Assembly (NCBI RefSeq): GCF_963921235.1
Contig: NC_086108.1
Span: 85,500,001-85,564,000 of the forward strand
Source of the DNA: Mobula hypostoma
Taxonomy: Eukaryota
Reading direction: 5' to 3'
Length of the DNA: 64,000 nucleotides
Under the pieces are notes generated by a model, which was given only the letters and a program-made list of their open reading frames with translations, ran no database searches and was not told where the DNA came from. How positions within the stretch are numbered: the first letter of the stretch is position 1; each line of letters opens with the position of its first letter. The position numbers and the translations under genes were made by a program. Shown one piece after another: positions 2,887-63,905 of the stretch.

Positions 2887-5690
2887 TGGAGTTTTAGGAC
2901 CAGCATTCTGCTGGATGGTTTGCACAGGCAGAAACCCAGTTTGCTCAGCGAGAAATCACCGCGGACAATACCAAATTTTACTACGTTGAAGCATCACTAA
3001 GTAGTTCTGCTGCAGCTAGTCTTACTAGGAGACCTGCCTGCACATGATAAATATGTTCTCTGAAAACTCAACTATTCCAGAATTTTGGACTGAGTGAGTC
3101 TGAGCGCACCAAGCAGTCGCTCTCCTTGCCCAGCCCGGGTGATGCTGGGCTTTCATAACCAGTGGGCCACATACTATCTCTCCTGGGCAAGCAGAATCCT
3201 TGTTTTATTTTTAAAGAACTCTTTATGCAACAAATGCCTGTTCAAGTTCACACCACCCTCACTAATACACTGGTGAAGGACTATAGGGAGCTTGCTAAAA
3301 TGTCCGATAGTCTACACTCAGCCAGGCAGAAGTGATTTGTTCCTCATATTTTCCCTGTCTCAATAGGCCCTCTCAGCAGACTCAGGCCTGCAGCTCTGAA
3401 CCAGACAACGCTAGGTTATGTTTTTACCACATACAATTTGGCACATATGGTACCATGCAGCTTCAACAGTGCCAGTACATTGGGACATCCGAAGTCTCCG
3501 AACACCATGGGTTCCAGCTGCCATTGTTCATTACAGACACTCTTTCAGAGCAACACATCCTGTGTGACACATGTGCTGAAGTGAGTGTGCTGTCTGCATC
3601 ACCCGTTGATTATATGGCAGAGAGTGAAGGATCCTCACTAGGACATGGCACATGGTGCTCTGCTTCAGTAGGTGATGCTACACATGGGATTTGCTCTTAG
3701 CTAAAGCTGATAGACCTCTGCTCGGTGCAAATGTCCTATGTGCTAAGGAAATGTTAGTAGATCTTAAGAACTGCCGGCTTGTGGATACAAAGGACTTCAG
3801 ATCATTATCTTATACCCCCCCCCCGTAAATTCCCCAACATGACTCTCAAGAGCATGCACCACCACGTGAATTTGCTCACAAGCTGATATTGCTCACTTGC
3901 AAATTCCCAAACCTCACCAAGCCTACATTATCCATCACAGAAACAAAGCCTGGGGTCGAGCACTGTATTTCCATAACTGGCTCACTGGCTCGTGCCCATG
4001 GGCGTAGGTGCACTCAGAAGAACTGGCCAGTGTGAGGGCTGAGTTTGCTAACATGGAAATGCTTTGCTTTGTATGCAGGTTGAATAGCCCTTGGGCTTCA
4101 CCCGTCCAGGTGGCCCCTAAGCCCGATGATAGTTGTCATTACTGTGGCCTTAATGAGGCCATTACCTAGTCCCACATATTCAACACTTTTCAGCACGTTT
4201 AGCTGGAGAAGTAACTTACTCTAAAGTGGAATTAGTCATGAGCTACCATCAGGTGCCTGTGTGTGTTGAGGATGTTCCCAAAACCGCAGTTATAATCCTG
4301 TTCGGCCTATTTGAGTTTCTGCACATGCCCTTGGGCTGCAAAATGCAGCACACTTGCCAGTGACAAATGGACTCAGTGTTAAAGGACTTAGATTTTCTTT
4401 TTGCTTACCTATGACATACTTGTTGCCAGTGTATCCAAAACTGAACTCTTATCACATCTCCGCATATCTTTCAAGCGTTAAACCAACATGGGCTGATTAT
4501 TAATCCTGCTAACTGCCAGTTCCAGTTGTCTTCAATTGATTTTCTTGGTTACCACATCTCTGCAGAAGGTGTGATGTCCCCCTGCCATCCAAAGTTGCTG
4601 CTATCATTGTCTTTCCACTGCACTGCACAATCAAGGCACTGCAAGATGTTTTAGGTTGGGTGAATTTCTATCATAGTTTTATTCTGTCAGCTGCTAAACA
4701 GATAAATATGTGGCTGAGAAGCTGATGCACGGGGCAGGGCTTCAGGTCCTTGGATAATTGGGATCTCTTCTGGGGGAGGTATGACTTGTTCAAAAGTGAC
4801 GGGTTGCACCTGAACCGAGGGGGACGAATATTCTCACGGGCAGGTTTGTTAGAACTGTTGGGGAGGGTTTAAACTAATTTGGCAGGGGGTGGGAACCAGA
4901 GTGAAGGGACTCAGGAAAGGACGGATGGTAAAAAAGTAAAGATAGCATGCAGTCAGATTGTCAGGAAGGGCAGGCAGGTGATGGGACATAGTTGCAGCCA
5001 ACAGTCTGAGTATCAAATCATTAGGGATGCAGAATCAGAAAGAATAACAAATACAGTACTCAAGATGCTGTATCTAAATGTGTGTAGTACAAGAAATCTA
5101 GCGGATGATCTTGTTGTAATATTACAGATTGTCAGGTCTGATGTTGTGGCCATAAATGAATCGTGGCTGAAAGATGGCTGTAGTTGGGAACTGAATGTCC
5201 AAGGTTACAAGTTGTATTGGAGGGAAAGGAATGTAGGCAGAGGGATTGGTGTGGCTCTACTGGTAAGGAGTGGCATCAAATCAGTAGAAAGATGTGACAT
5301 AGGATCGGAAGATGTTGAATCCTTGTGGGTTGAGTTAAGAAACTGCAAGGGTAAAAGGACGTAGATGGCAGTTATATACAGGCCTCCCAACAGTGGTTGG
5401 GAGGTGGACCACAGATTACAACAGGAAATCGAAAAGTTGAGTTAAAAGGGCAATGTTATGGTAGTTGTGGGAGATTTTAACATGCAGGTCGATTGGGAAA
5501 ATCTGGTTGATAATGAATCTCAAGAGACTGAGTTTGCTGAATTCCCAAGAGATGGCTTTTTAGAGCAGTTTGTCATTGATCCTACTAGGGTATCAACTAT
5601 AATGGATTAGGTGTTATGTAATGAACTGGAGGTGATTAGGGAACTGAAGGTAAAAGAACCCTGAGGAACCAGTGATCACAATATGATTGT

Positions 5691-5801
5691 AGCAACACAC
5701 ATCAAAGTTGCTGGTGAACGCAGCAGGCCAGGCAGCATCTATAGGAAGAGGCGCAGTCGACGTTTCAGGCCGAGACCCTTCGTCAGGACTAACTGAAGGA
5801 A
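5691..5801 (-). mobile_element. 111-bp non-coding Penelope pLTR-derived insertion carrying a hammerhead motif
   Basis: Perfect 14-bp TSD cacaatatgattgt (5677-5690, 5802-5815); nearly identical to the terminal repeat of the GIY-YIG element at 10212-10864. Confidence 0.9.
5755..5790 (-). ncRNA. Minimal type-I hammerhead ribozyme motif (intact core)
   Basis: Minus strand reads AGUC-CUGACGA-AGG(GUCUCGG)CCU-GAAA-CG-UC-GACU: stem I AGUC/GACU, conserved CUGANGA and GAAA, GUC cleavage triplet, and a vestigial palindromic stem III as in Penelope minimal hammerheads. Confidence 0.8.
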
Positions 5802-8800
5802 CACAATATGATTGTGTTCAACTTGAAATTTGATAGGGAGAAAGTAAAGTCTGACATAGCAGTATTTCAGTGGAGTAAGGAAAAATTACAGTGGTATGAG
5901 AGAGGATTTGCCCAAAGTAAACTGGAAGGAGCTGCTGGCAGGGATGACAGCAGTGCAGCAATGGAGTGAATTTCTGGGAAAAATTGAAGAAGTACTCAAA
6001 TGGTAAAATAGTACAACTGTGGCTGACAAGGGAAGTCAACACTATTGTAAAAACAAAAGAAAGGGCATACAACGAAGCAGAAATAGTGGGAAGATAAAGA
6101 GAGCAACTAAAAAAACTATTAGAAGGGAAAAGATGAAATATGAAAGCAAGCTAGTAAATAATATTGATGTGGATAGCAAAAATTTTTTCATGTATGTTGA
6201 AAATAAAAGAGAAATGAGAGTGGATATAGGACCGCTAGAAAATGAGGCAGGAGAAATAATAATGGGGGCCAAGGAGATGGCCGATGAACTAAATGAGTAT
6301 TTTGTATCAGTCTTCACTGTGGAAGACACTAGCAGTATGCCTGATGTTGTAGTGTGTGAAGGAAGAGAAGTGGGTGCAGTTAATGTTATAAGAGAGAAGA
6401 TGCTCAAAAAGCTGAAAGACCTAAAGGTACATAAGTCACCTGGACCAGAGGAACTGCACCCTAGGGTTCTGAAAGAGGTAGCATTAGAGATTGTACTAGC
6501 ATTAGAAATGATCTTTCAACATCATTGGACTCTGCCATGGTGCCAGAGGACTGGAAATTTGCAAAAGTTACTTCACTCTTTAAGAAAGGAGGAAGGCAGC
6601 AGAAGGGAAATTATAGACCCATTAGTCTGACCTCAGTGATTGGGAAGATGTTAGAGTCAATTGTTAAGGATGAGGCTCTGGAGTACTTGCTGATACAGGA
6701 CAAGATAGTACAAAGTCAGCATAGTTTCCTTCAGGGAAAATCCTGCCTGACGAACCTGTTAGAATTCTTTGAAGAGATTACAAGTAGGATAGATAAAGGG
6801 GATGCAGTGTATATTGAATATTTGGATTTTCAGAAACCTTTGACAGTGTGCCACACATGAGGCTGCTTATCAAGTTAAGAGCCCAAGGTGTTACAGGAAA
6901 GTTACTAACCTGGTTAGAGCATTGGCTGATTGGTAGGAGGTGGCAAGTGGGATCCTTTTCTGGTTGGCTGCCAGTGACTGGTGGTGTTCCACAGGGGTTG
7001 GTGCTGACACCACTTCTTTTTATGCTGTACATAAATGACTTAGATGATGGAATAGATGGCTTTGTGCCAAGTTTGCAGATGATACAAAGATTGGTAGAGG
7101 AGCAGGTAGTGTTGAGGAAACAGGTAGGATGCAGAAGGACTTAGATTAGGAGAATTGGCAAGAAAGTGGCAAATGAAATACAATGTTGGAAAAAATGCAT
7201 GGTCATGCACTTTGGTAGTAGAAATAAATGTGTAGACTATTTTCTAAATGGGGAGAAGATCCAGGAATCTGAGATGCAGAGGGACTTGGGAGTGCTTGTG
7301 CAGAACACGCTGAAGGTTAACTTGCAGGTTGAGTCAGTGGTGAGGAAGGCAAATGCCATGTCAGCATTCATTTCAAGAGGTCTAGAATACAAGAGCAAGG
7401 ATGTGTTGCTGAGGCCTGGTGAGGACTCACCTTGAGTATTGTGAACAGTTTTGGGCCCCTCATCGTAGAAAAGATGTGCTGGCATTGGAGAGGATCCAGA
7501 GGAGGTTCACGGGGTTGATTCCAGGAATGAAAGGGTTATCATACGAGTATCATTTGATAGCTCTGGGTCTGTACTTGCTGGAATTCAGAAGGATGAAGGG
7601 GGATCCTATTGAAACCTTTTGAACGTTCACAGGCCTAGACAGAGTAGATGTAGAAAGGATGTTTCCCATGATGGGAGAGTCTAGGACAAGAGGGCACAGC
7701 CTCAGGATAGAGAGGCACCCTTTCAAAATAGAGATGCGGAGAAATGTCTTTAGCCAAAGGGCAGTGAATTTGTGGGATTTGTGGCTACATGCAGCTGCGG
7801 AGGCCAGATTGATGTGTATATTTAAGGCAGAGATTGATAGGTTCTTGATTGGACATGGCATCAAAGGTTACTTGGAGAAAGTCAGGAACTGGGGTTGAGG
7901 AGGAGATTAAAAAAAAGGATCATCCATGATTGAATGGCGGAGCAGACTCAATGGGCCTGATGGCCTAATCCCACTCCTATATCTTATGGCCCCCTTGTAG
8001 ATTGCCCTTAAAGGCAGTGCCCCTAACTGCAAGCTTGAGTTGTTAGTAGACATGACAGAAGTATTTGATGACCCCAAATAAGCTCCTTTAATTGCAACCC
8101 TACTGGTGTACCTGCTTCCCAATGCGCTTATAGCCATCATTATTAATGCCCCAGACAATGCTGTGCACAAACAGTTGGTTGGAGGCCCGCAGCAGCCCCT
8201 CGGCTCCTTCAGCCAGCAGCTTGACCCTTATCTCTGAGAGCAAGCGCAGCACGTTTGACTGTGACATTTTTGGTCTCTATTTGGCCATCTATCATTTTTG
8301 TTTTCTACTTGAGGGTTAGCATTTCGCAGCGCTCTTCGACACAAAACCCTCGTGCGCGTGATGGCCAAAACGTTCGATCCTAGGTCTGCATGGTGGCAAT
8401 GCCACCTGGCCTACATTTCAGAATTTATGACTGGCATAGAACACATTAAAGGGAAAAATGATGCTGTGGCTGGTTGCCTCTCATGGCTTGCTGTCGACAC
8501 CACACACATCAGGGTTGACTATGCCGGTATGGAAGTTAACCAAGCTATTGACCCAGAGGTCTAGGCTTACAGGACACCAGTCACGGGCCTGTGGTTGGCT
8601 GATGTCAAGTTCGGGGACACTGGAGTTTTTCTCCAGTGTGATGTCTTAATTGATTGTCCTAACCTCCATACTGCCTGCTTACTGTTTTTAATTCCATTCA
8701 CAGCCTCTCTCATCCAGGCAGGAAAACTTCACAGAAACTGATTGCTTTAAAGCTTGTGCGGCAATGGCCTAAGGAAGAATTTGAAAGACTGGAGCACAGC

Positions 8801-10037: not shown

Positions 10038-10211
10038 ATGGATTCATTTTTTAATGTGATCAGACAATAAAAGATTCAATTAGTTTCAGACATGTATCAA
10101 CCCTTAGAAGACCACAGAGTCTGATGAAATAGTCTTTCCTAATTCAAGGCCGAAATTTTGCACATGGAAACAAAGATTAATTGAACTCTGAAAACATCTC
10201 TCACAGAAGGA

Positions 10212-10864
10212 ACACACATCAAAGTTGCTGGTGAACGCAGCAGGCCAAGCAGCATCTATAGGAAGAGGTGCAGTCGACGTTTCAGGCCGAGACCCTTCGT
10301 CAGGACTAACAGAAGGAAGAGTGAGTAAGGGATTTGAAAGCTGGAGGGGGAGGGGGAGATGCAAAATGATAGGAGAAGACAGGAGGGGGAGGGATAGAGC
10401 CGAGAGCTGGACAGGTGATAGGCAGAAGGGGATACGAGAGGATCATGGGACAGGAGGTCCGGGAAGAAAGACGGGGGGGGGGGTGACCCAGAGGATGGGC
10501 AAGAGGTATATTCAGAGGGACAGAGGGAGAAAAAGGAGAGTGAGAGAAAGAATGTGTGCATAAAAAAGAGTAACAGATGGGGTACGAGGGGGAGGTGGGG
10601 CCTAGCGGAAGTTAGAGAAGTCAATGTTCATGCCATCAGGTTGGAGGCTACCCATACGGAATATAAGGTGTTGTTCCTCCAACCTGAGTGTGGCTTCATC
10701 TTTACAGTAGAGGAGGCCGTGGATAGACATGTCAGAATGGGAATGGGATGTGGAATTAAAATGTGTGGCCACTGGGAGATCCTGCTTTCTCTGGCGGACA
10801 GAGCGTAGATGTTCAGCAAAGCGGTCTCCCAGTCTGCGTCGGGTCTCACCAATATATAAAAGGC
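10212..10864 (-). mobile_element. 5'-truncated Penelope-like element (GIY-YIG endonuclease C-terminus plus pLTR), young
   Basis: ORF 10602-10916 'GLLYIGETRRRLGDRFAEHLRSV...PVATHFN...LEEQHLIFRMGSLQPDGMNIDF'; 10-bp TSD cacagaagga (10202-10211, 10865-10874); hammerhead motif in the 3' repeat. Confidence 0.92.
10272..10307 (-). ncRNA. Minimal type-I hammerhead ribozyme motif (intact core)
   Basis: Same 36 nt as 5755-5790: AGUC CUGACGA AGGGUCUCGGCCU GAAA CG UC GACU. Confidence 0.8.
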
Positions 10865-11659
10865 CACAGAAGGATGGGGGTTCTAACACATGCATATCTG
10901 CAAACATCTTGATCATTGACAGGAGAGATCGTGTGAGATATTCAGGAGTTGATCAGAAGACAATAAATTCAACGTTCTCAGCTCTGGTCAGCCAGCTATA
11001 GGAAAGATGTAATTGAATTCCATGGGGTACAGAAAAGAATGACATGGACTTCCCTGGAAGTGGAGAGCTTGGGTTATAAAGAGAGGCTGGATAGGCTGGT
11101 ATATTTTTCTTGAGTGAAGGCGACGGCTTTAATTGGAGTTGCTGCTATGTGACTGACTGATTAGTTATTTGCATTGATGAGCAGGTGTACAGGTGTACCT
11201 AGTAATGTGACCACTGAGTGAAAATTAAGGTGTCCATTGGTCCTGTCAGGCTCAGGTCTTTCCTTTTGTCCTAACCTTTACCAGGACCAGTCAGTTGCAT
11301 GAAAGTATCACACTCAAACTCAACTGAACTCCAAGTTCAACACAACTCCAAGTCACTACAATTTAAAACAATGATATATTTTGTGAGCGGTTAGTTGGGT
11401 TTATTTCCTTTTTAAAGAAGTAGTGTAATGGCACCTTTATGAACAGAGAGTGCGCTGTGGTTTGACTCCAGAGCTTAGTACAGTGGTGTAGTCACTGTCT
11501 CAATGCCCGAAACCTGGGCTCAATACTGACCTGATTTGCTCACCACGTGGGAGTGTGTAAATTCTCCCCGTTATCATGGATTCTCAGCTTTGTCTTAGAT
11601 CTCCAGATGTTAAGCTTGACTCTGGATCATTATTGCCGACAGCACCAGTTTAATTCAAT

Positions 11660-13727: not shown

Positions 13728-13870
13728 TGAAAGAAAAAACAGAAAATGCTGGAAAATATTTCTGGTCTGAGCTGGTGAAATGTCTTTGACATGAAACTTT
13801 AACTCTGTTTCTCTTTCTCGAGATGCTGCCTGATGTGTTGAGTATTTCCAGTATTTTCTGTTTTTATCTC
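13728..13870. mobile_element. Old Penelope pLTR fold-back remnant
   Basis: 'aaaaacagaaaatgctggaaa' is inverted relative to 'tttccagtattttctgttttt'; internal 'gatgctgcctga' as in the other pLTR copies. Confidence 0.55.
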
Positions 13871-22202: not shown

Positions 22203-22340
22203 TAGTCCTGATGAAGGGTCTCGGCCCAAAACGTCAACTGTTTACTCTTTTCCATAGATGCTGCCTGGCCTGCTGAGTTCCACCAACATTTTGTCTCTGG
22301 TGCTTGGATTTCTAGCATCTGCAGATTTTCTCTTGTGTGT
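22203..22340 (+). mobile_element. Penelope pLTR mini-insert with a mutated hammerhead motif
   Basis: 'agtc ctgatga agggtctcggccc aaaa cgtc aact' (GAAA mutated to AAAA), then 'gatgctgcctggcctgctgagttc...catctgcagattttctcttg'; sits inside a CR1 3' fragment (~21000-22650). Confidence 0.8.
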
Positions 22341-26749: not shown

Positions 26750-26805
26750 GTTACTGATGAATTTCCAAAAGATTAGGGGATAGCTAAACAACAAACAACA
26801 GCTAA

Positions 26806-26910
26806 CTCTTCCTTCAGTTAGTCCTGACAAAGGGTCTCGGCCTGAAACGTCGACTGTACCTCTTCCTAGAGATGCTGCCTGGCCTGCTGCGTTCACCAGC
26901 AACTTTGATG
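26806..26910 (+). mobile_element. Penelope pLTR mini-insert with hammerhead motif (CUGACAA variant)
   Basis: 'agtc ctgacaa agggtctcggcct gaaa cgtc gact' at 26820-26855; otherwise near-identical to 5691-5801. Confidence 0.85.
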
Positions 26911-29219
26911 AGACGATAGTTAACGTTGCTCCATTGATCACAAAGTGTAGCAAGGACAAGCCAGGAACTACTAAATACAGTTTGTGAAAGTGTATAAAGT
27001 ACTCTGCAAAACAAGAAGACATGAATAAGGTGCACTGAACAGTCTGTTTCTCTGCTATAATGTTCTGTGACTTTAAGAACAATGTGGAGACAAACAGAAA
27101 GACACTAGGAGAGAGATTTTGGAAGAAAAGACGAGAAGCAATTTGTGCTGCTGCCTCAGAGACTGAGCGACATAGGTTTGTTCCTGAACTTGCATCCTGT
27201 CTGTGTAGAGTTTCCATATTCTCTGTTGGCTATGTGGGTCTCCTTTGAGGTTTTCCAATTCTGTCCAATATCCCAAACACATATTGGAAGGTTAAGCGAA
27301 TATTGTAAAATTGCTGTTACTAGTGGAACATAACAAAAGAATCAAAGGGGACTGTGGAAAGAGTACTCAAGCATTGCATGCAAATAATGTTGGGATTGAT
27401 GGCATTGCTCTGTTGGAAGCTGACAAGGGGTATGTGGGGACCTTCTGTGCTGCAATTATGAAGGAAATAAAATGTGTTGGCTCTGAGCTACTGGACATCA
27501 TTGTTATTAAACAAATAGAGAAACTTGAAGGTTTATAGGGCATGGATGGAGGACAAAAATAGTAGAAATACTCTAAAACAATGTAGAACCAAGGCTCTTG
27601 CGGGCTAAACTTTGCAAAACTTATAGAGGGTTGTCAGAGTGAATTGCTTCTGTGTTTCTTATCTTTAAAGAGCTCAGGGTCACATAGCTGGGAATTGTAG
27701 GCCTGTTAGTGTGGGACAAATCCTAAACTTCCTTGTAAAATAGACAATTCCAGAGCATTCCGGAATGGCAGACTAATAAAGTCAAGCAAATATAGTTTCG
27801 CAAATGACAGCTCCTAGCTAGGAACTCATTACAATTTATTTTCAGGACAAGCAGTGGGTGGGTAAAGGTGCAGATGATTTTCAGATGCATGTGCTAACAT
27901 CCCACAAGATTTGTGGCAAAAGTGACAACCCAAGGGACCTGATTTGAAGTAGTAAATTGTCTTATTAATTAGCTAGGTAATAGGAAACAGAAGGTAGTTA
28001 TTAATGGTAATAACATTAATTGACTGCTTGTGACCAGCAGAGCACTCAACAAAGAGTCCCAGAGAACTCCATCATCAACAAGTGTGCTATAAAATTTTTC
28101 TGAGGGGACAGATTATTAGATATGCCTCTAACATGAGAACAGATGAATTATAAATTGCACTTATCCTATTAGTCAATGTGCCTATACTGTGCGAAAATAA
28201 TGACTGTGAAACAATTGGCAGTTTAATGCTGTGCAAGTTGCATTTTGGAAAAAATATAAGTGTGTTAATGTGACGGATCTCAGGATCTATCCTGAGTCAG
28301 GTCATAAATATTTTAAATTAAATTTTAAACTGGGCCAATGCCCTGGAATTTTTTGCAAATGGAGTTGAGCCGGCAATTTTTTTTTAGACTGAGTTATTGT
28401 TTCTGTGGCTGGGATTACAATGCTGGATTGTTCACTGTGATGGTGTGCAATGCTTTGAAATCTGCCAATAAACTCCACATCCTTAGTAGAGTAATGGAGA
28501 CTTAAATTTAGCAAGGAAATGTAATAAAAACAAGGAAAACTGTCAGTTGCATGTGGTTTGATGGTGATTGCCTTGTCTTTGTGATATGGTTATCTCTAAA
28601 GGTTGGAGGAACAAAGGAGCTTGTTTTCCAAGATAAAGTCAGGTGCACGTTGAATCAGTATCTTTTGATGACACTGTTAATTCATTCGTAGAATATGGGT
28701 GTCACTGGGAATTCAGCCTATTAATACCTATCTCTATTTCCACTTGAACTGTCAATCAATATGGAATGTGAACCATCTCCTGTTACTGTTTCATTGTCTT
28801 ATTATTGATGGATGGATCCACCTTCAGAGGAAGTGCATGCTGTGAATAAAAGTGACAGCTGCTTTAGTTCATACAAAACAACTATGATGAGACAGAACAT
28901 TATGACTTCACAACTTAAATGTACCTTATAACTGGTCTAAAAACTGGTCCACGTCTCATGCTTATCCTCCCGCTTGTCCTGCAACTGCACCTATGTTTTG
29001 TGGACACAGTGCTCACAGCAATCTTGAGGAATTGCCACCAATGCTGTCGGACAAGGTGCGGCTGACAATGAGTGGCAACTGAGCATCAGGCACCACTAGG
29101 CCTTAGGTCTCACACCACTAGATTCAGGAGTAATTATTACCATTTGACCACTGGGCTTCTGAACCAGTGTGGATAACTACACTCACCTCAACACTGAACT
29201 GATTCCACAACCTATGGAC

Positions 29220-29503
29220 AAATGAGAAAATCTTCAGATGCTGGAAATCCAAGCAACGCATGCAAAATGCTGGAGGATCTCAGCATAGCCCAAAACATTG
29301 ACTGTACTCTGTCCTGACAAAGGGTCTCGGCCTGAAGCGTCGACTGTACCTCTTCCTAGAGATGCTGCCTGGCCTGCTGTGTTCACCAGCAACTTTGATG
29401 TGTGTTGCTTGAATTTCCAGCATCTGCATAATTCCTGTTGTTTGTGTCTTTACTATAGTTGCTGCCTGGCCTGCTGGGTTCCTCCAGCATTTTGTGTGTG
29501 TTG
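29220..29503. mobile_element. Penelope pLTR fold-back element containing a nested younger pLTR (~29310-29442)
   Basis: 15-bp TSD ccacaaccta(t/c)ggac (29205-29219, 29504-29518); inverted arms 'caacgcatgcaaaatgctggagga' / 'tcctccagcattttgtgtgtgttg'; inserted in a Rex1 3'UTR. Confidence 0.85.
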
Positions 29504-29576
29504 CCACAACCTACGGACTTACTTTCAAGGGCTCTACAAACCATATTTAGTATTATTTATTTATTTATTTACTTAT

Positions 29577-30291: not shown

Positions 30292-30495
30292 ATACAAAAA
30301 ATGCTGGAGGAACTCAGCTGGTCAGGTAGCATCTATGCAAGAGAATAAACTGTCAGCTTTTCAAGCCAAGGCCCTTTATCAGGACATCTTGGCCCAAGAT
30401 ATAAACTGTTTATTTCCCTCTATAGATTTTGCCTGACCTGCTGAGTTTCTCCAGCATTTTGTGCGCTGCACTGGAGTTCCTCTTTCTTGTGTTTA
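30292..30495. mobile_element. Older Penelope pLTR fold-back element
   Basis: 'aaaatgctggaggaactcagctggtcagg...' is inverted relative to '...cctgacctgctgagtttctccagcatttt'. Confidence 0.75.
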
Positions 30496-33259
30496 GCAAA
30501 AAGTGTGATGTCATTTATGTGTTTTGTTGCACAGCCTTAAGCATCTGTCTTGTTTTTCATTGACATGGTGATTATACATAAGGAGACTACATGACATGTG
30601 GATTTAATACCTACCTCTCATTCCTCTTGAACTAACAATCTAATGTTTCCAAGCCATTGCCTTTTACTGTTTCATTGTCTTAGTACTGATTGACAGCTCG
30701 ATTGCCAGACCTGGTGGATGATGGGAATAAAAGTGACAGTTGCTTCAGCTCATATGAATCAACCATTTAGCTCCTGGTTATATTAGTGAAATGGGAACAT
30801 CATGATCCTGCAGACTAAGTGGTTCTTGTAACAGGTAATGGACATTTTGTTGATGCTAGTGGCATGGTAGTGCAAGGCTACTACAGTTCAGGATGTCAGA
30901 GTTCAGAGTTCAATCCCAGCATTCTCTGTAAGGTGTTTGTACATCCTCCCTGTGCAACGTGTGGGGTTTCCTCGCACAGTCCAAAGATGTAATGGTTAGT
31001 AGGTTAATTGGTCACTGTAAATTGTCCCGTGATTAGGCTAGGGTTAAGTAGGTGTGTTGCAGTCGGGTGCAGCTCGAAGGGCTGGATGCAGTGGCATAAC
31101 CGTGGCTGATGAATGGCACATGCTGCCCTCAGAGGAATGTCCTAACTGGAGAACTGAAGCCTGCCTCACCAAGTCCTTTGCTATGGAGTCTGAGTTACTG
31201 ATCTTATCGCAGAGTGGTTTTCCTTGATCAAAAATAAACTGCTGGAGGAACTCAGCACATCAAAAAGCATGTTAGGAGACAGAGGGATAGTTGATGTTTT
31301 GGTTTGAGACCCTGAATCAGAAGTGAGAGCTATACACCATATAAACAGACCCTTCGGGCCAAACTTGTCCATACTGACCAAGGTGCCTTGTTGACCTGAT
31401 CCTATTTGCCTGCATTTGGCTCATATCCATGGAAATGTTTTCCATCCATGAATTGCTCCAAATATCTTTTAAATGTTGTAATTGTATCTGACTCTAAGAC
31501 GACTTCTGCCTGCTCATACCATATAGCCAGCTCCATCTGTGTGAAAAAGTTGCCTCTTAAATCCTCTTCAAGTTTGGATCTGTGCAGTTAAGCTTCTGGT
31601 AATGAAAACCTACTGTGAGATCTCATGATTTGTGATTTGGCCACGAGTGGTCAGAACAAGCCTCATCTACTAAAGCGTCCATCAAAGGCAACAAGTTTAC
31701 AATACATCTGAACATCTCCAACATTCAGAAGCATTGTGCCAAAAGACTGAGTAAAAGAAATTTATTTCAAAGTAATTTTTTAAATCATAGTTACGTGTAT
31801 GTCACCATACACCAACCTGAGATTGATTTTCCTGCAGGCAATCACAGTAGACACAACAAAACACAACAGAATCAAACCTTGCGGGCAGGTTTGCTAAAGT
31901 TGTTTGGGAGGGTTTAAACTATTTTGAAAGGGGGGTGGGAACCGGAGTGATAGTGCTGAGGGTGAGGTGGTTGGTTTACAAGCAAAGGTAATGCGTAGTG
32001 GGACTCCTAGAATGAAGAGGCCGATGACAGGGCAAAATTGCAGTCAACAGGATGAGTTGAAATGTAAAAGGTGGACAAAATCAAAGGATGAATACAGGAC
32101 TGAACGTGTTTGAATGCGCGCAGTATATGGAATAAGGTAGATGAACTTGCAGCGCAGTTACAGATTGGCACGTATGATGTTGTATGCATCTCTGAATCAT
32201 GGCTGAACGGAGATAATAGCCGGGAGGCTAACATCCAAGGATACATATTGTATCGAAAGGACAGGTTGGAAGGTGGGGAGGGGGCATGACTCTGTTAGTA
32301 AATATTGAAATCATTAGAAAGAAGTGACATAGAGATTTCCAGCATGTGCAGATTTTCTCTTGATCATGAAATAGGGTCAGAAGGTATTGAATCGTTGCGG
32401 GTAGAGCTAAGGAACTTCAAGGGTAAAAAGACCCTGATAGGAATTATATACAGACCCCCAAATTGTAGCAAGGGTGTGGTCTACAAGTTATAATAGGAGA
32501 TAGAAAATGCATGCCAAAAGGGCAATGTTACAATAATCATGGGGGATTTCAATATGCAGATAGATTAGGAAAATTTGGTTACTGCTGGAACCCAAGAGGG
32601 GTAATTTCCAGAATGCCTATGAGATGACTTTTTAGAGCAGCTCATGGTTGGGCCCAGCTATTGTGGACTTGGTGTTATGGAATGAACCAGAATTGATTAG
32701 CGAGCTTAAGATAAAACAACCATGAGGGAAAAGTGATCGTAATATGAGCAAATTCACCCTGAGATTTGAGAAGGAGAAACTAAAGTCAGATATATCAGCA
32801 TAACAGTGGAGTAAAGGGAATTACAGAGGGATGACCAAAATTGATTGGAAACAAACACTGGCAGGGATGATGGCAGGGCAGCAATGGCTGGAATTTCTGG
32901 AAGCAATTTGGAAGTGCAGTATATACATCCCAAAGAGGAAGAAGTATCGCAAAGGCAAGTTGACACAACCTTGGCTAATACGGAAAGCCAGCATAAAAGC
33001 CAAAGGGAGGGCATATAACAGAGCAAAAGATAGTCGAAGTTAGAGGATTGGGAAGCTTTTAAACACCAACAGAAGGCAACCAGAAAAGCCATTAAGAAGG
33101 AAAAAATGGAATACGAAAGTAAGTTAGTTAATAATATTAAAGAGGATACCCAGTTTCTTCAGATACATAAAGTGTAAAAGTGGACCACTGGAAAACAATG
33201 CTGGAGAGGTAGTAATCGGGGACAAGGAAATAGTGGACAAACTGTATAAGTATTTTACA

Positions 33260-44160: not shown

Positions 44161-44924
44161 CTTTAGATGATCTGTTTGATAGGATGTCCCATTAAAAACC
44201 TTAGCCCTTCACCAAATTTAATATTAAGTTAGGGTCAGGAAGAGAGATATAATTTAGATTGAGGGAGTGGGCAAAACTATAAAAAGTGGATTCCATTATG
44301 GAGAATTGAAGGTCATTCAATCAGGAACCAAGGAGGATAAATTTAAGAGCCTTCTATGTAGTGGGAAGCTGGCAACTTCAGAACAGCAAAGTCCTGAGTA
44401 ATTTAATAAACCAAATCATTAAAATTGAGTAGGTGCAGGAACAATCAAAAATGATAATGGAATGTTAGCTTTAATCCCCAGAGACAGATGGAAATGGGAG
44501 GAAGAAATGTTTAGGCAGCTCAGACTCTTTATGAGACAGTATCTGCTTTCAATCTTAAGTATCATAACTCAGAAATTGATCTTGGAAGTGTATCATTCAA
44601 ATTCGCGACGATGATATTGTAGTTTAGCAGACTCGGCATAGTGATATTAAACTTGATCTTTGTACTCTTTGGCCATCTTCTTTATTGTGACTTCAATCCA
44701 ACTTCCCATAAGATGTGCTTCTAACATTTTGGGGTTAGTGTGACTGAACCATGTCAAGTGCATTGTGATGTATTCTGGGAAATTATTTACAGTTGCCTGC
44801 CTGATATGCCCAAATGATTCCATGATAACATTGCATTTCTTCAGAATCTCAATTTGTTCAGGCTCCACTGTGTATTGCAGTTATAATTGGCCTCAATTGC
44901 ACACTGGCTATTGAGTTTACATCA

Positions 44925-45822
44925 GAGATGTCCTCCTTCTTTAAACAACTGGGTTTCCCTCCCTCTATTATTGATGCCCATTCCAGAATATCAAAGATGT
45001 TCTCCTTCTTTAAAGAATGGGGTTTCCCTCAAACTACTATTGATGCTGCCCTCACCTGCATCATCTTCATTTCCCATACATCTGTGCTCGCCCCATCTTC
45101 CCGCTACCATAATATTGATAGAGTCCCTCTTGTCCTTACCTGCCACCCCATCAGCCTCCGCATCCAACCGATCATCCTCTGCAACTTCCTCCAAAGGTAC
45201 CCTACCACTAAACATGTCTTTACCTCCCCAGCATTCTGTTTTCCGCAGGGATCGCTCACTCTGTGATTCTCTTGTCCACTTATCCCTCCCCAATATCCAC
45301 CCTTCAGGCACTAATCCCTGCAAGTGGCCTAAGTACTACACCTGCCCATACACCTCCTCCCTCAGCTCCATTCAGGGCTCCAAACAGTCTGTCCAGGTGA
45401 GGCAGCACTTCACCTGCAAGTCTGCTGGGGTATTCGATTGTGTCCGGTGCTTCTGATGTGTCTTCCTCTACATTGGTGAGACCCTTTGTAAATTGGGGGA
45501 CTGCTTTGTCGAGCACCTCTGCACCATTTGCCAGAAACGGGACTTCCCTGTGGCCAAACAGTTTAATTCCAATTCCCATTCTCATTCTGACATGTCAATC
45601 TATGACCTCCTCTTGTGCCAAGGTGATGCCACCCTCAGGGTGGAGGAGCAACACCTCATATTCCGTACGCTACAAACTTGATGGTGTGAATATTGATTTC
45701 TCCTTCTGCTGATCAAATATTCCCACCTGATCTTCTCATCAGCCTATTACTTACCCCTGAGTCCCCTCCTCCTTCCCTTTCTACTCTGGAGCACTGTATT
45801 CTCCTCTCAGATTCCTTCTCCT
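44925..45822 (+). mobile_element. Penelope-like element fragment (RT C-terminus, Cys-rich linker, GIY-YIG; Neptune-like)
   Basis: 'FFKEWGFPQTTIDAA', 'RVPLVLTCHP', 'GTNPCKWPKYYTCPY', 'FTCKSAGVFDCVRC', 'LYIGET', 'FPVAKQFNS', 'RVEEQHLIFR'. Confidence 0.88.
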
Positions 45823-45975
45823 AACTATTCGAGGATGACACAACAGTGGTTGGCCGTATCAAGAACATTGATGAGGAGGTTCAGACAAACAATCCCCTCT
45901 GCGAATACTTGGTTCCTCCGCAGGGAGAGAGTTAGGTGCACCAAGTTCCTGGGAGTTCAGATCCGGATGACTTCA

Positions 45976-48310: not shown

Positions 48311-48520
48311 CACAAACAAGAGGAAATCCGCAGATGCTGGAAATCCAAGCAACACACACAAAATGCTGGAGGAACTCAGCAGGTCAGGCAGCATCTATGG
48401 AAAAGAGTACAGTCGACGTTTTGGGCTGAAGAGTCTCAGCCTGAAATGTTGACTGTACTTTTTTCCATAGGTGCTGCCTGGCCTGCTGATTTCTTCCAGC
48501 ATTTTGTATGTGTTGTTTCA
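48311..48520. mobile_element. Penelope pLTR fold-back (palindromic) mini-element
   Basis: 10-bp TSD aagaaacttt (48301-48310, 48521-48530); ~80-bp inverted arms meet inside the hammerhead region ('gtcgacgttttgggctga-agagtc-tcagcctgaaatgttgac'). Confidence 0.88.
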
Positions 48521-63314: not shown

Positions 63315-63905
63315 ACTTTGTCAAGCGCCTCCACTCCATCCGCTAAAAACGGAATTTCCTGGATGCCAACCATTTTAATTCCTATCCCCATTCCCGCTCT
63401 GTTGTTAGTCCATGGCCTCCTTTTTGTTTTGCCACAATAAGGCCACTCTCAAGGTGGAAGAGCAACTCCTCATACTCCTTCTAGGTAGTCTCCAACCTAA
63501 TAGCATGAACATTGATTTCTCCTTCTGGTAATAATCCCCCCCCCCCCCCGTTTCCCTTGTCTTCTATTCCCTACTCTGGCCTTACCTGCTCACCTGCTTA
63601 TCACCTTCCCCTGGTGTGCCTCCATCTTCCCTTCTCCCATGGTCCACTCTCCTCTCTGATCAGATTCCTTCTTCTCTAGCCCTTTACCTTTCTCACCCAC
63701 CTGGCTTCACCTATCACCTTCTAGTTAGTCCTTCTTCCCCTTCCCTCCACCTTTTTTATTCCGGCAATTTTCCCCTTCCTTTACAGTCCTGAAGTGTTGA
63801 AAGCTTATTCATCTCCATAGATGCTGCCTGACCTGCTGAGTTCCCCCAGCGTTTTGTGTGCGTTGCTCTGGATTTCCAACATCTGCAGAATTCTTGTGTG
63901 TACAA
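63315..63905 (+). mobile_element. Penelope-like 3' fragment (GIY-YIG end plus pLTR)
   Basis: Homologous to 10212-10864 ('ccattttaattcc','ggtggaagagcaactcctcata','catgaacattgatttctcc'); pLTR 'agtcctgaag...gatgctgcctgacctgctgagttc' has its hammerhead core deleted. Confidence 0.82.

Follow-up and report, generated by a model that had tools for sequence, protein, structure and literature searches.

A 64,000-nucleotide stretch of the Mobula hypostoma genome (NC_086108.1, positions 85,500,001 to 85,564,000; hereafter the window) holds a 111-bp insertion, which is probably the 3' terminus of a Neptune-type Penelope-like element (PLE), 5'-truncated by internal priming with a stop in a preferred zone, and likely dead on arrival. 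The insert matches the end of a copy that bears part of the element's open reading frame (ORF), has the fixed 3' end common to its relatives and is framed by a target site duplication (TSD); furthermore, the 5' ends of the copies in the window cluster at the upstream half and edge of the hammerhead ribozyme in their pseudo-long terminal repeat (pLTR), away from its cut site. An earlier sequence-only reading of this DNA attributed the insert to a discrete family, similar to retrozymes or short interspersed elements (SINEs), moved by the Penelope reverse transcriptase (RT); movement by a Penelope-type RT/endonuclease is supported by the data below, and the separate family is not. As a single insertion the case is of little weight, since a known class of elements commonly makes such products and this is the shortest of them, and the part worth keeping is the cliff in copy length at about 115 nt.

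The TSD, CACAATATGATTGT, matches in 14/14 positions and leaves exactly 111 bp between its two copies (Table 1). As had been read from the sequence, it lies at the S-D-H codons of a CR1-type long interspersed element (LINE) endonuclease, its first base belonging to the His codon of S-D-H-N-M-I. A paralog of the host at 53.1-53.9 kb matches Pfam Exo_endo_phos with E 5.8e-14. Since two CR1 paralogs of the window (about 53.1-53.4 kb and 32.7-32.8 kb) hold the insertion site singly, the 14-bp repeat represents a true duplication of host sequence, and since the host copy already had in-frame stops of its own, no live gene was killed by the insertion. It should be added that the target site at 5799-5819 is an imperfect palindrome, which together with the first three bases of the insert makes a perfect 9-bp hairpin (0/200 shuffles); this hairpin, which spans the 5' junction (z -4.45), owes most of its pairing to the palindrome of the target itself, and the microhomology that it implies amounts to 2/3 bases and may be chance. 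The TSD is also readable as 16/17.

The 111 nt of the insert match positions 10208-10318 at 96%, i.e. the end of a 653-bp subfamily-A copy with a pyrimidine-rich untranslated region (UTR), located 4.4 kb from the insert. Outside the TSD of that copy the two are collinear with 3/108 differences, as compared with 4/102 and 6/99 differences between the insert and the short subfamily-A copies at 26.8 and 29.3 kb. The latter two (26805 and 29311) have three changes in common that are absent from the insert. As the insert is nearest to the ORF-bearing copy and these two share changes that it lacks, the short copies, judged from four subfamily-A copies in all, do not form one separate lineage. At two of the three positions that distinguish the insert from the 653-bp copy (10311 and 10248) most of the sequencing depth of a relative, organism A, has the base of the insert, which places the insert near the current form of the subfamily.

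The protein of the 653-bp copy shares 94% and 89% identity with proteins that bear the names of Mobula hypostoma and Hypanus sabinus, both of which carry the RT motif YIDD, a CX4CxxC linker (P0001, P0002) and GIY-YIG. The Pfam GIY-YIG profile matched the 653-bp copy at E 0.014, below the curated cut-off, and the 94%-identical protein at E 4.6e-4, while RVT_1 was detected at E 2.2e-6 in a protein 55% identical. A CX2-5CxxC linker preceding GIY-YIG is described as the mark of the Neptune and Nematis clades (PMC8557442). The parent would thereby be an endonuclease-positive (EN+) PLE of Neptune/Nematis type, its clade being suggested by the linker motif alone, as the window is without a full RT of the subfamily.

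To describe the 5' ends, pLTR arms were collected with a profile search that returned 20 rows at E up to 1. The weakest rows at 16.6, 21.5 and 39.2 kb (CR1 or unplaceable) and a tail-only piece at 32.3 kb were dropped, one arm at 13.75 kb was added by eye and the 45-kb copy, which has lost its pLTR, was excluded; the final set comprised 17 arms in 11 insertions. Arms stop at one tail-less point or bear a tail of about 37 nt. Counted from the tail-less 3' end, they measure 24, 36, 57, 57, 81, 83, 85, 91, 99, 99, 100, 101, 102, 111, 115, about 560 and 654 nt, with the edges of old copies being approximate and short old copies under-found. Eleven of the 17 arms are thus 81-115 nt long and 0/17 fall at 116-550 nt. 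Simulations with scan correction used two nulls only, one geometric and one log-uniform, and each reached the observed cluster in 0/400 runs at both widths, the widths having been set with the data in view. When every insertion was represented by a single arm, 8/11 lay at 91-115 nt and the clustering was still not matched (0/400). The arm edges that were checked adjoin CR1-like flanks or inverted arms, not diverged UTR. By the simulations, memoryless truncation is rejected and a preferred stop zone must be added to the truncation reading. The proposal that the 5' ends are non-random is supported; its extension to a discrete unit is not. Of the arms of the window, 0/17 start within 3 nt of the GUC cut site of the ribozyme, which rules out ribozyme cleavage as their source. 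Snap-back of the complementary DNA (cDNA) as the cause of the stop was likewise ruled out, its folds (-1.6 to -3.1 kcal/mol) being no better than those of shuffles.

Three further copies had been cited as like units beginning within about 15 nt upstream of stem I. Their starts do lie there, 15 nt (26805) and 1 nt (22203) upstream of stem I and 1 nt inside it (29311), but they differ in ends, subfamily and architecture. Together with the insert, the 5' ends of the four named copies fall at unit nt -3, 1, 11 and 13, so there is no fixed 5' end, and the catalytic core is mutated in all three sisters. The change G8A (26829 and 29319, unit nt 21) and two other changes are common to both short copies of subfamily A2, where most other CpGs are intact; the shared G8A may reflect a mobile master whose ribozyme was dead. 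The insertion within 29205-29518 unites four pLTR pieces of two subfamilies in one TSD, an inverted arm with a tail followed by three pieces on the same strand as one another, so that the template was switched several times during a single integration.

Table 1. Coordinates in the window of the 111-bp insertion, its host, its ribozyme and related Penelope-like copies
Positions	Strand	Feature	Remarks
5560-5950	+	Host: decayed CR1-type LINE endonuclease region	
5677-5690	+	TSD, left copy	CR1 endonuclease codons H-N-M-I
5691-5801	-	111-bp insert: last 111 nt (pLTR without tail) of Neptune-type PLE, subfamily A	
5754-5791	-	Minimal type I hammerhead, core intact	Predicted cut between 5759 and 5758
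5788-5801	-	Pyrimidine-rich leader ending CAG/TAG at stem I	Predicted pairing with ribozyme core
5802-5815	+	TSD, right copy	
10212-10864	-	Longer 5'-truncated subfamily-A copy of 653 bp, from the 3' part of the GIY-YIG endonuclease through the 3' UTR to a pLTR whose hammerhead is intact	10-bp TSD 10202-10211/10865-10874
13730-13860	.	Old head-to-head pair, more distant subfamily	Edges approximate
22203-22340	+	pLTR with tail of about 37 nt, subfamily B, core mutated	CR1-like flank, no perfect TSD
26805-26910	+	pLTR, subfamily A, G8A	5' edge 4 nt farther upstream than in the insert, 3' end short by 9 nt, no clean TSD
29220-29503	.	Insertion of four pieces from subfamilies A and B, an arm on the minus strand and three pieces on the plus strand	14/15 TSD 29205-29219/29504-29518
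29311-29446		Arm within the four-piece insertion	Listed as a unit at 29310 by the sequence-only reading
30294-30480	.	Old head-to-head pair of pLTR arms	
31227-31322	-	Old single pLTR arm	Starts at about stem I
48311-48520	.	Head-to-head pair, one arm tailed	10-bp TSD 48301-48310/48521-48530
63316-63901	+	Longer old copy with tail, comprising endonuclease end, UTR and a pLTR in which part of the hammerhead is deleted	

For the relatives, 4/23 listed runs were aligned to window positions 10144-10893, and depth in these data is not copy number. X22, with 214 aligned reads, was too distant to be informative. In the contigs of organism A loose ends pile up at the tail-less 3' point (182 and 278 contigs), and their low agreement (0.41-0.42) fits a fixed end with varied flanks. 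Depth in this organism is about 7 million in the pLTR, drops to 3.8 million at 10311, ranges from 2.2 to 4.5 million in the UTR and reaches 5.2 million where the ORF ends. These values cut both ways, with a step at the ribozyme edge and yet many long copies. In the raw Hi-C data of organism F, 1619 reads depart from the reference precisely where stem I begins, and their agreement is 0.53; the values for comparison are 0.38 at a chimera point due to a restriction site and 0.83-0.92 at places where a single family continues. Most of these reads would thus enter varied sequence, which fits either a junction hot spot or several UTR subfamilies; UTRs diverge between species just upstream of stem I (X21). 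The X15 depth drop across 10311-10322 was not used as a sign of an RNA end, since it comes from contigs and only guessed RNA. Scans of metagenome and viral contigs with an exact pattern returned 0 loci, and a shorter pattern returned 32, all of which (32/32) were chance matches confined to the typed core in non-fish DNA.

The hammerhead of the insert is laid out as stem I (U/AGUC with GACU/G), CUGACGA, stem II, GAAA, a loopless C-G and UC. It therefore has the features of a minimal type I motif (core CUGANGA, GAAA, UH, helices I and II and the extra base before helix II), and the intact minimal hammerhead named by the sequence-only reading was recovered with a redrawn stem II: a bulged A plus GGGU/GCCU is better than AGG/CCU (-7.7 vs -6.3 kcal/mol). 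The predicted cut follows insert nt 43, and the insert's 5' edge thus lies 43 nt upstream of it. With up to one mismatch, the core pattern occurs four times in the window against 0.19 expected (0/100 shuffles). Across seven aligned copies 57/63 stem cells are paired, as compared with 13-43% in slid registers, and the first pair of stem II is G-C in 2/7. Stem covariation in these seven copies was not above shuffles (37 to 297 of 500), nor was thermodynamic support for the fold (z -0.5 to +1.0). Rfam gave no match at the gathering score, its e-value mode returning only an irrelevant small nucleolar RNA at E=1; such a miss is expected, because the motif lacks helix III. The dimer type previously suggested agrees with the palindromic 15.2-16.2 without loop 3, whose ACGU self-duplex amounts to -1.7 kcal/mol, self-cleavage itself being a prediction. 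The monomer is predicted to mis-pair its own core, and in a solo copy the ribozyme is predicted to be inactive. In organisms A and F there are rare 35-37-bp tandem duplications of the hammerhead alone, with joints from 10306-10307 to 10270-10273 (depth 32-65; 4 reads), which amount to natural in-cis dimers.

Upstream of stem I, an 11-nt leader is predicted to sequester the ribozyme, with a stem probability of 0.09 with the leader and 0.94 without it; the same holds for two other leader-bearing subfamily-A copies (0.04-0.05). As a selected switch, the leader-core hairpin was equalled by 31/300 shuffled leaders and 13/271 other UTR 11-mers, and since about 10% of shuffled leaders sequester the core equally, the pairing is a weak hint. 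A pyrimidine tract with AG at stem I is found in subfamily A, in the 63.8-kb copy and in the organism F loose-end consensus. The leader at 5788-5801 resembles a 3' splice site, and its AG may be there only for stem I pairing. In Drosophila virilis Penelope an intron is described as ending at helix I (PMC4209133). Among the 15 joints listed, with 141 more outside the listing, none corresponds to splicing at the AG before stem I.

Under the truncation reading, the insert was likely copied a single time from the RNA of the element, by target-primed reverse transcription. The GIY-YIG endonuclease would have nicked both strands of the AT-rich CR1 relic 14 nt apart, and the tail-less start, which lies 68 nt downstream of the cut site, would have served the RT for internal priming. 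On an RNA that had not been cleaved, the RT would then have passed the entire hammerhead and halted 11 nt beyond stem I, and repair would have joined the cDNA end. The 3' end of the 111-mer is the position of the tail-less RT start. In the account available for the Anolis Poseidon protein in vitro (PMC11167929), both strands are nicked at AT-rich sites, two internal priming sites match the ends with and without tail, RNA downstream is required, product length follows the template 5' end and ribozyme cleavage is dispensable. Furthermore, 5' truncation, optional tails, inverted partners, TSDs and solo pLTRs are described among PLE products (PMC8557442, PMC3846280), and minimal hammerheads are reported to be mostly single dispersed motifs, thought probably linked to truncated PLEs (PMC4209133). 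A copy that ends at the priming site would be without the downstream binding segment and, as no promoter was seen in it either, would leave no progeny.

For the stop zone itself we give somewhat less than even chances to run-off of the RT at the point in the upstream pLTR where the template RNA naturally begins; PLE transcription is described as starting in the upstream pLTR in Drosophila and Chlamydomonas. It might instead be a pause or template-switch zone at the border of the ribozyme and the pyrimidine tract, which we consider nearly as likely, and a splice junction or microhomology bias would take what is left after these two. We hold only tentatively that the copies of about 100-115 nt are integrated strong-stop cDNAs: the Neptune RT would prime in the 5' pLTR and run off the transcript where it naturally begins, at the hammerhead's upstream border, and a transcript start or splicing there would switch on the ribozyme, whose core the upstream leader is predicted to hold unfolded. 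If so, the 5' end that the element's RNA has in vivo could be read from genomic junctions, and the making of long copies would require a template jump or circular or tandem RNA.

Several points weigh against the account of a truncated PLE tail. The in vitro RT work concerns Poseidon and not a Neptune element. Plain memoryless truncation was rejected by the simulations, the cause of the stop zone being one that we infer, and 15/17 arms of the window are short, above the expectation of smooth decay. The 5' edge of the insert (nt 1) lies upstream of the densest spot, where five arms begin at nt 10-13. Adineta pLTRs alone are reported to mobilise intervening DNA in trans (PMC3846280), so a pLTR-only master is not impossible.

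A discrete family of about 111 nt, retrozyme- or SINE-like, would spread from masters of its own via the Penelope RT, possibly through ribozyme-cut circles; we consider it improbable. It would account for the clustered lengths and the perfect TSD, but the ends differ among all four named copies, neither end of the insert lies at the cut site, and the 43 nt upstream of the cut are parent UTR and no circular permutation of a unit. The three changes shared by 26805 and 29311 are absent from the window's one long subfamily-A copy, as such a family would have it, yet the insert is nearest to that ORF-bearing copy. Head-to-tail pLTR joints do occur in organism A; however, they are rare among the joints listed (depth 48-81 vs 7-11 million over the pLTR), and in the window there is no tandem and no RNA polymerase III (Pol III) box. 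PLE-derived retrozymes and monomers are reported from vertebrates, including one cartilaginous fish (bioRxiv 10.64898/2026.07.22.740005), and non-autonomous PLEs are described in Chlamydomonas.

Ordinary random 5' truncation without any preferred zone would make the cluster a result of small numbers, UTR divergence and missing very short copies. The small sample, the width chosen post hoc, the approximate old edges and the divergence of UTRs upstream of stem I (X21) speak for it, and the ORF-end depth in organism A, about 70% of that in the pLTR (5.2 vs 7.0-7.3 million), is a crude hint of many long copies. Against these stand the simulations (0/400), the checked edges with their CR1-like flanks or inverted arms, and the gap at 116-550 nt, where copies would be easier to find and yet none was found; we hold this explanation to be unlikely. 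Recombination of a full-length insertion between its paired pLTRs, with a solo pLTR remaining inside the TSD, appears very improbable. It is mechanistically possible, would retain the TSD and would give the length of the 5' pLTR, but 111 bp is a short recombination substrate, the question would only shift to why 5' pLTRs have that length, and the arms that start in the same zone within head-to-head and four-piece insertions would stay unexplained. Recombination is proposed for some Adineta solo pLTRs, there without TSDs (PMC3846280).

Thus, the insert is of a known kind, a truncated EN+ PLE with a minimal PLE hammerhead. With the truncated copies and solo pLTRs described for Neptune and Nematis (PMC8557442, PMC3846280) it shares the pLTR, the fixed 3' end, the optional tail of 30-40 nt, a TSD of 9-15 bp, 5' truncation, inverted partner arms and the parent's CX2-5CxxC linker before GIY-YIG; the published passages compared do not describe a preferred 5' stop zone at the upstream edge of the ribozyme. 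The complete core, the helix I of 4-5 bp, the extra nucleotide before helix II and the loopless palindromic 15.2-16.2 agree with PLE minimal hammerheads as published. The wobble G10.1-U11.1 in place of G-C in this subfamily and the helix II of only 4 bp set this putatively self-cleaving variant apart. Anolis carolinensis Poseidon PAc (Frangieh et al. 2024, PMC11167929) has, as far as its account goes, two RT starts giving ends with and without tail, an AT-rich target containing ATT, an uncleaved RNA template and no ends at the cut site, as here. It belongs to another clade, and its ORF starts in stem II, where subfamily A has ACG, with no long ATG frame in the 111 nt. One frame is open throughout the minus strand at 5692-5799 (36 codons, no ATG), which is not beyond chance; the first ORF codons are described as lying in the pLTRs of other PLEs.

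Metazoan non-LTR (long terminal repeat) retrozymes (Cervera and De la Pena 2020, PMC7229834; Li et al. 2026, bioRxiv 10.64898/2026.07.22.740005) resemble the insert in being non-coding, with a type I hammerhead, related to pLTRs, flanked by long TSDs and presumably mobilised by PLEs. By these accounts, however, they are tandem with at least two ribozymes, mostly canonical, and expressed as circles, whereas the insert is a single copy with a minimal motif, and its ends are instead the parent's RT start and a truncation point. The 2020 definition calls for a canonical type I motif with loop-loop contacts, and the 2026 preprint also admits minimal ones; the insert has a minimal motif with no Rfam hammerhead match. 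The 'monomer' class of the preprint resembles it, and most PLE insertions are described there as 5'-truncated with a single terminal repeat. In the window 0/9 Tandem Repeats Finder rows involve the pLTR, there are 0 transfer RNA genes, and on the sense strand even the best match has 3 mismatches, both for the A box and for the B box of Pol III. As in SINEs, the 3' end is common to an autonomous partner; a fixed 5' end and a lineage of its own were not found. As tandem units, the canonical motif, a Pol III head and a fixed 5' end all fail, the insert is not filed as a retrozyme or SINE.

In the literature searched, which left outside subscription papers, Repbase and supplements (Fig. S2 of PMC11167929 with genomic ends; the preprint tables), no description was found of 5' junctions that peak at this edge of the ribozyme, the upstream one. 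The role of the hammerhead in PLEs has been called 'still a mystery' (PMC7761336). Here a very abundant, recently active family of rays has 5' junctions that gather at the upstream edge of the ribozyme and avoid its cut site, and it makes testable two open questions, the formation of PLE terminal repeats and the role of the hammerhead in vivo.

Some observations on the longer Penelope copies should be added. At the 5' junction of the 653-bp copy (10865-10868) 4 nt of microhomology are common to TSD and element. An older fragment at 44921-45830 comprises RT thumb, linker, degenerate near 45.3 kb, and GIY-YIG, with a 57-bp internal duplication (44921/44990); it is without a pLTR, as another LINE-like element follows. 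The endonuclease end of the 653-bp copy is also present in P0003, P0005 and P0010, within Hypanus RefSeq models named kinase domain 1C, mucin-2 and ATP synthase subunit C3, which reflects either exonisation or annotation error.

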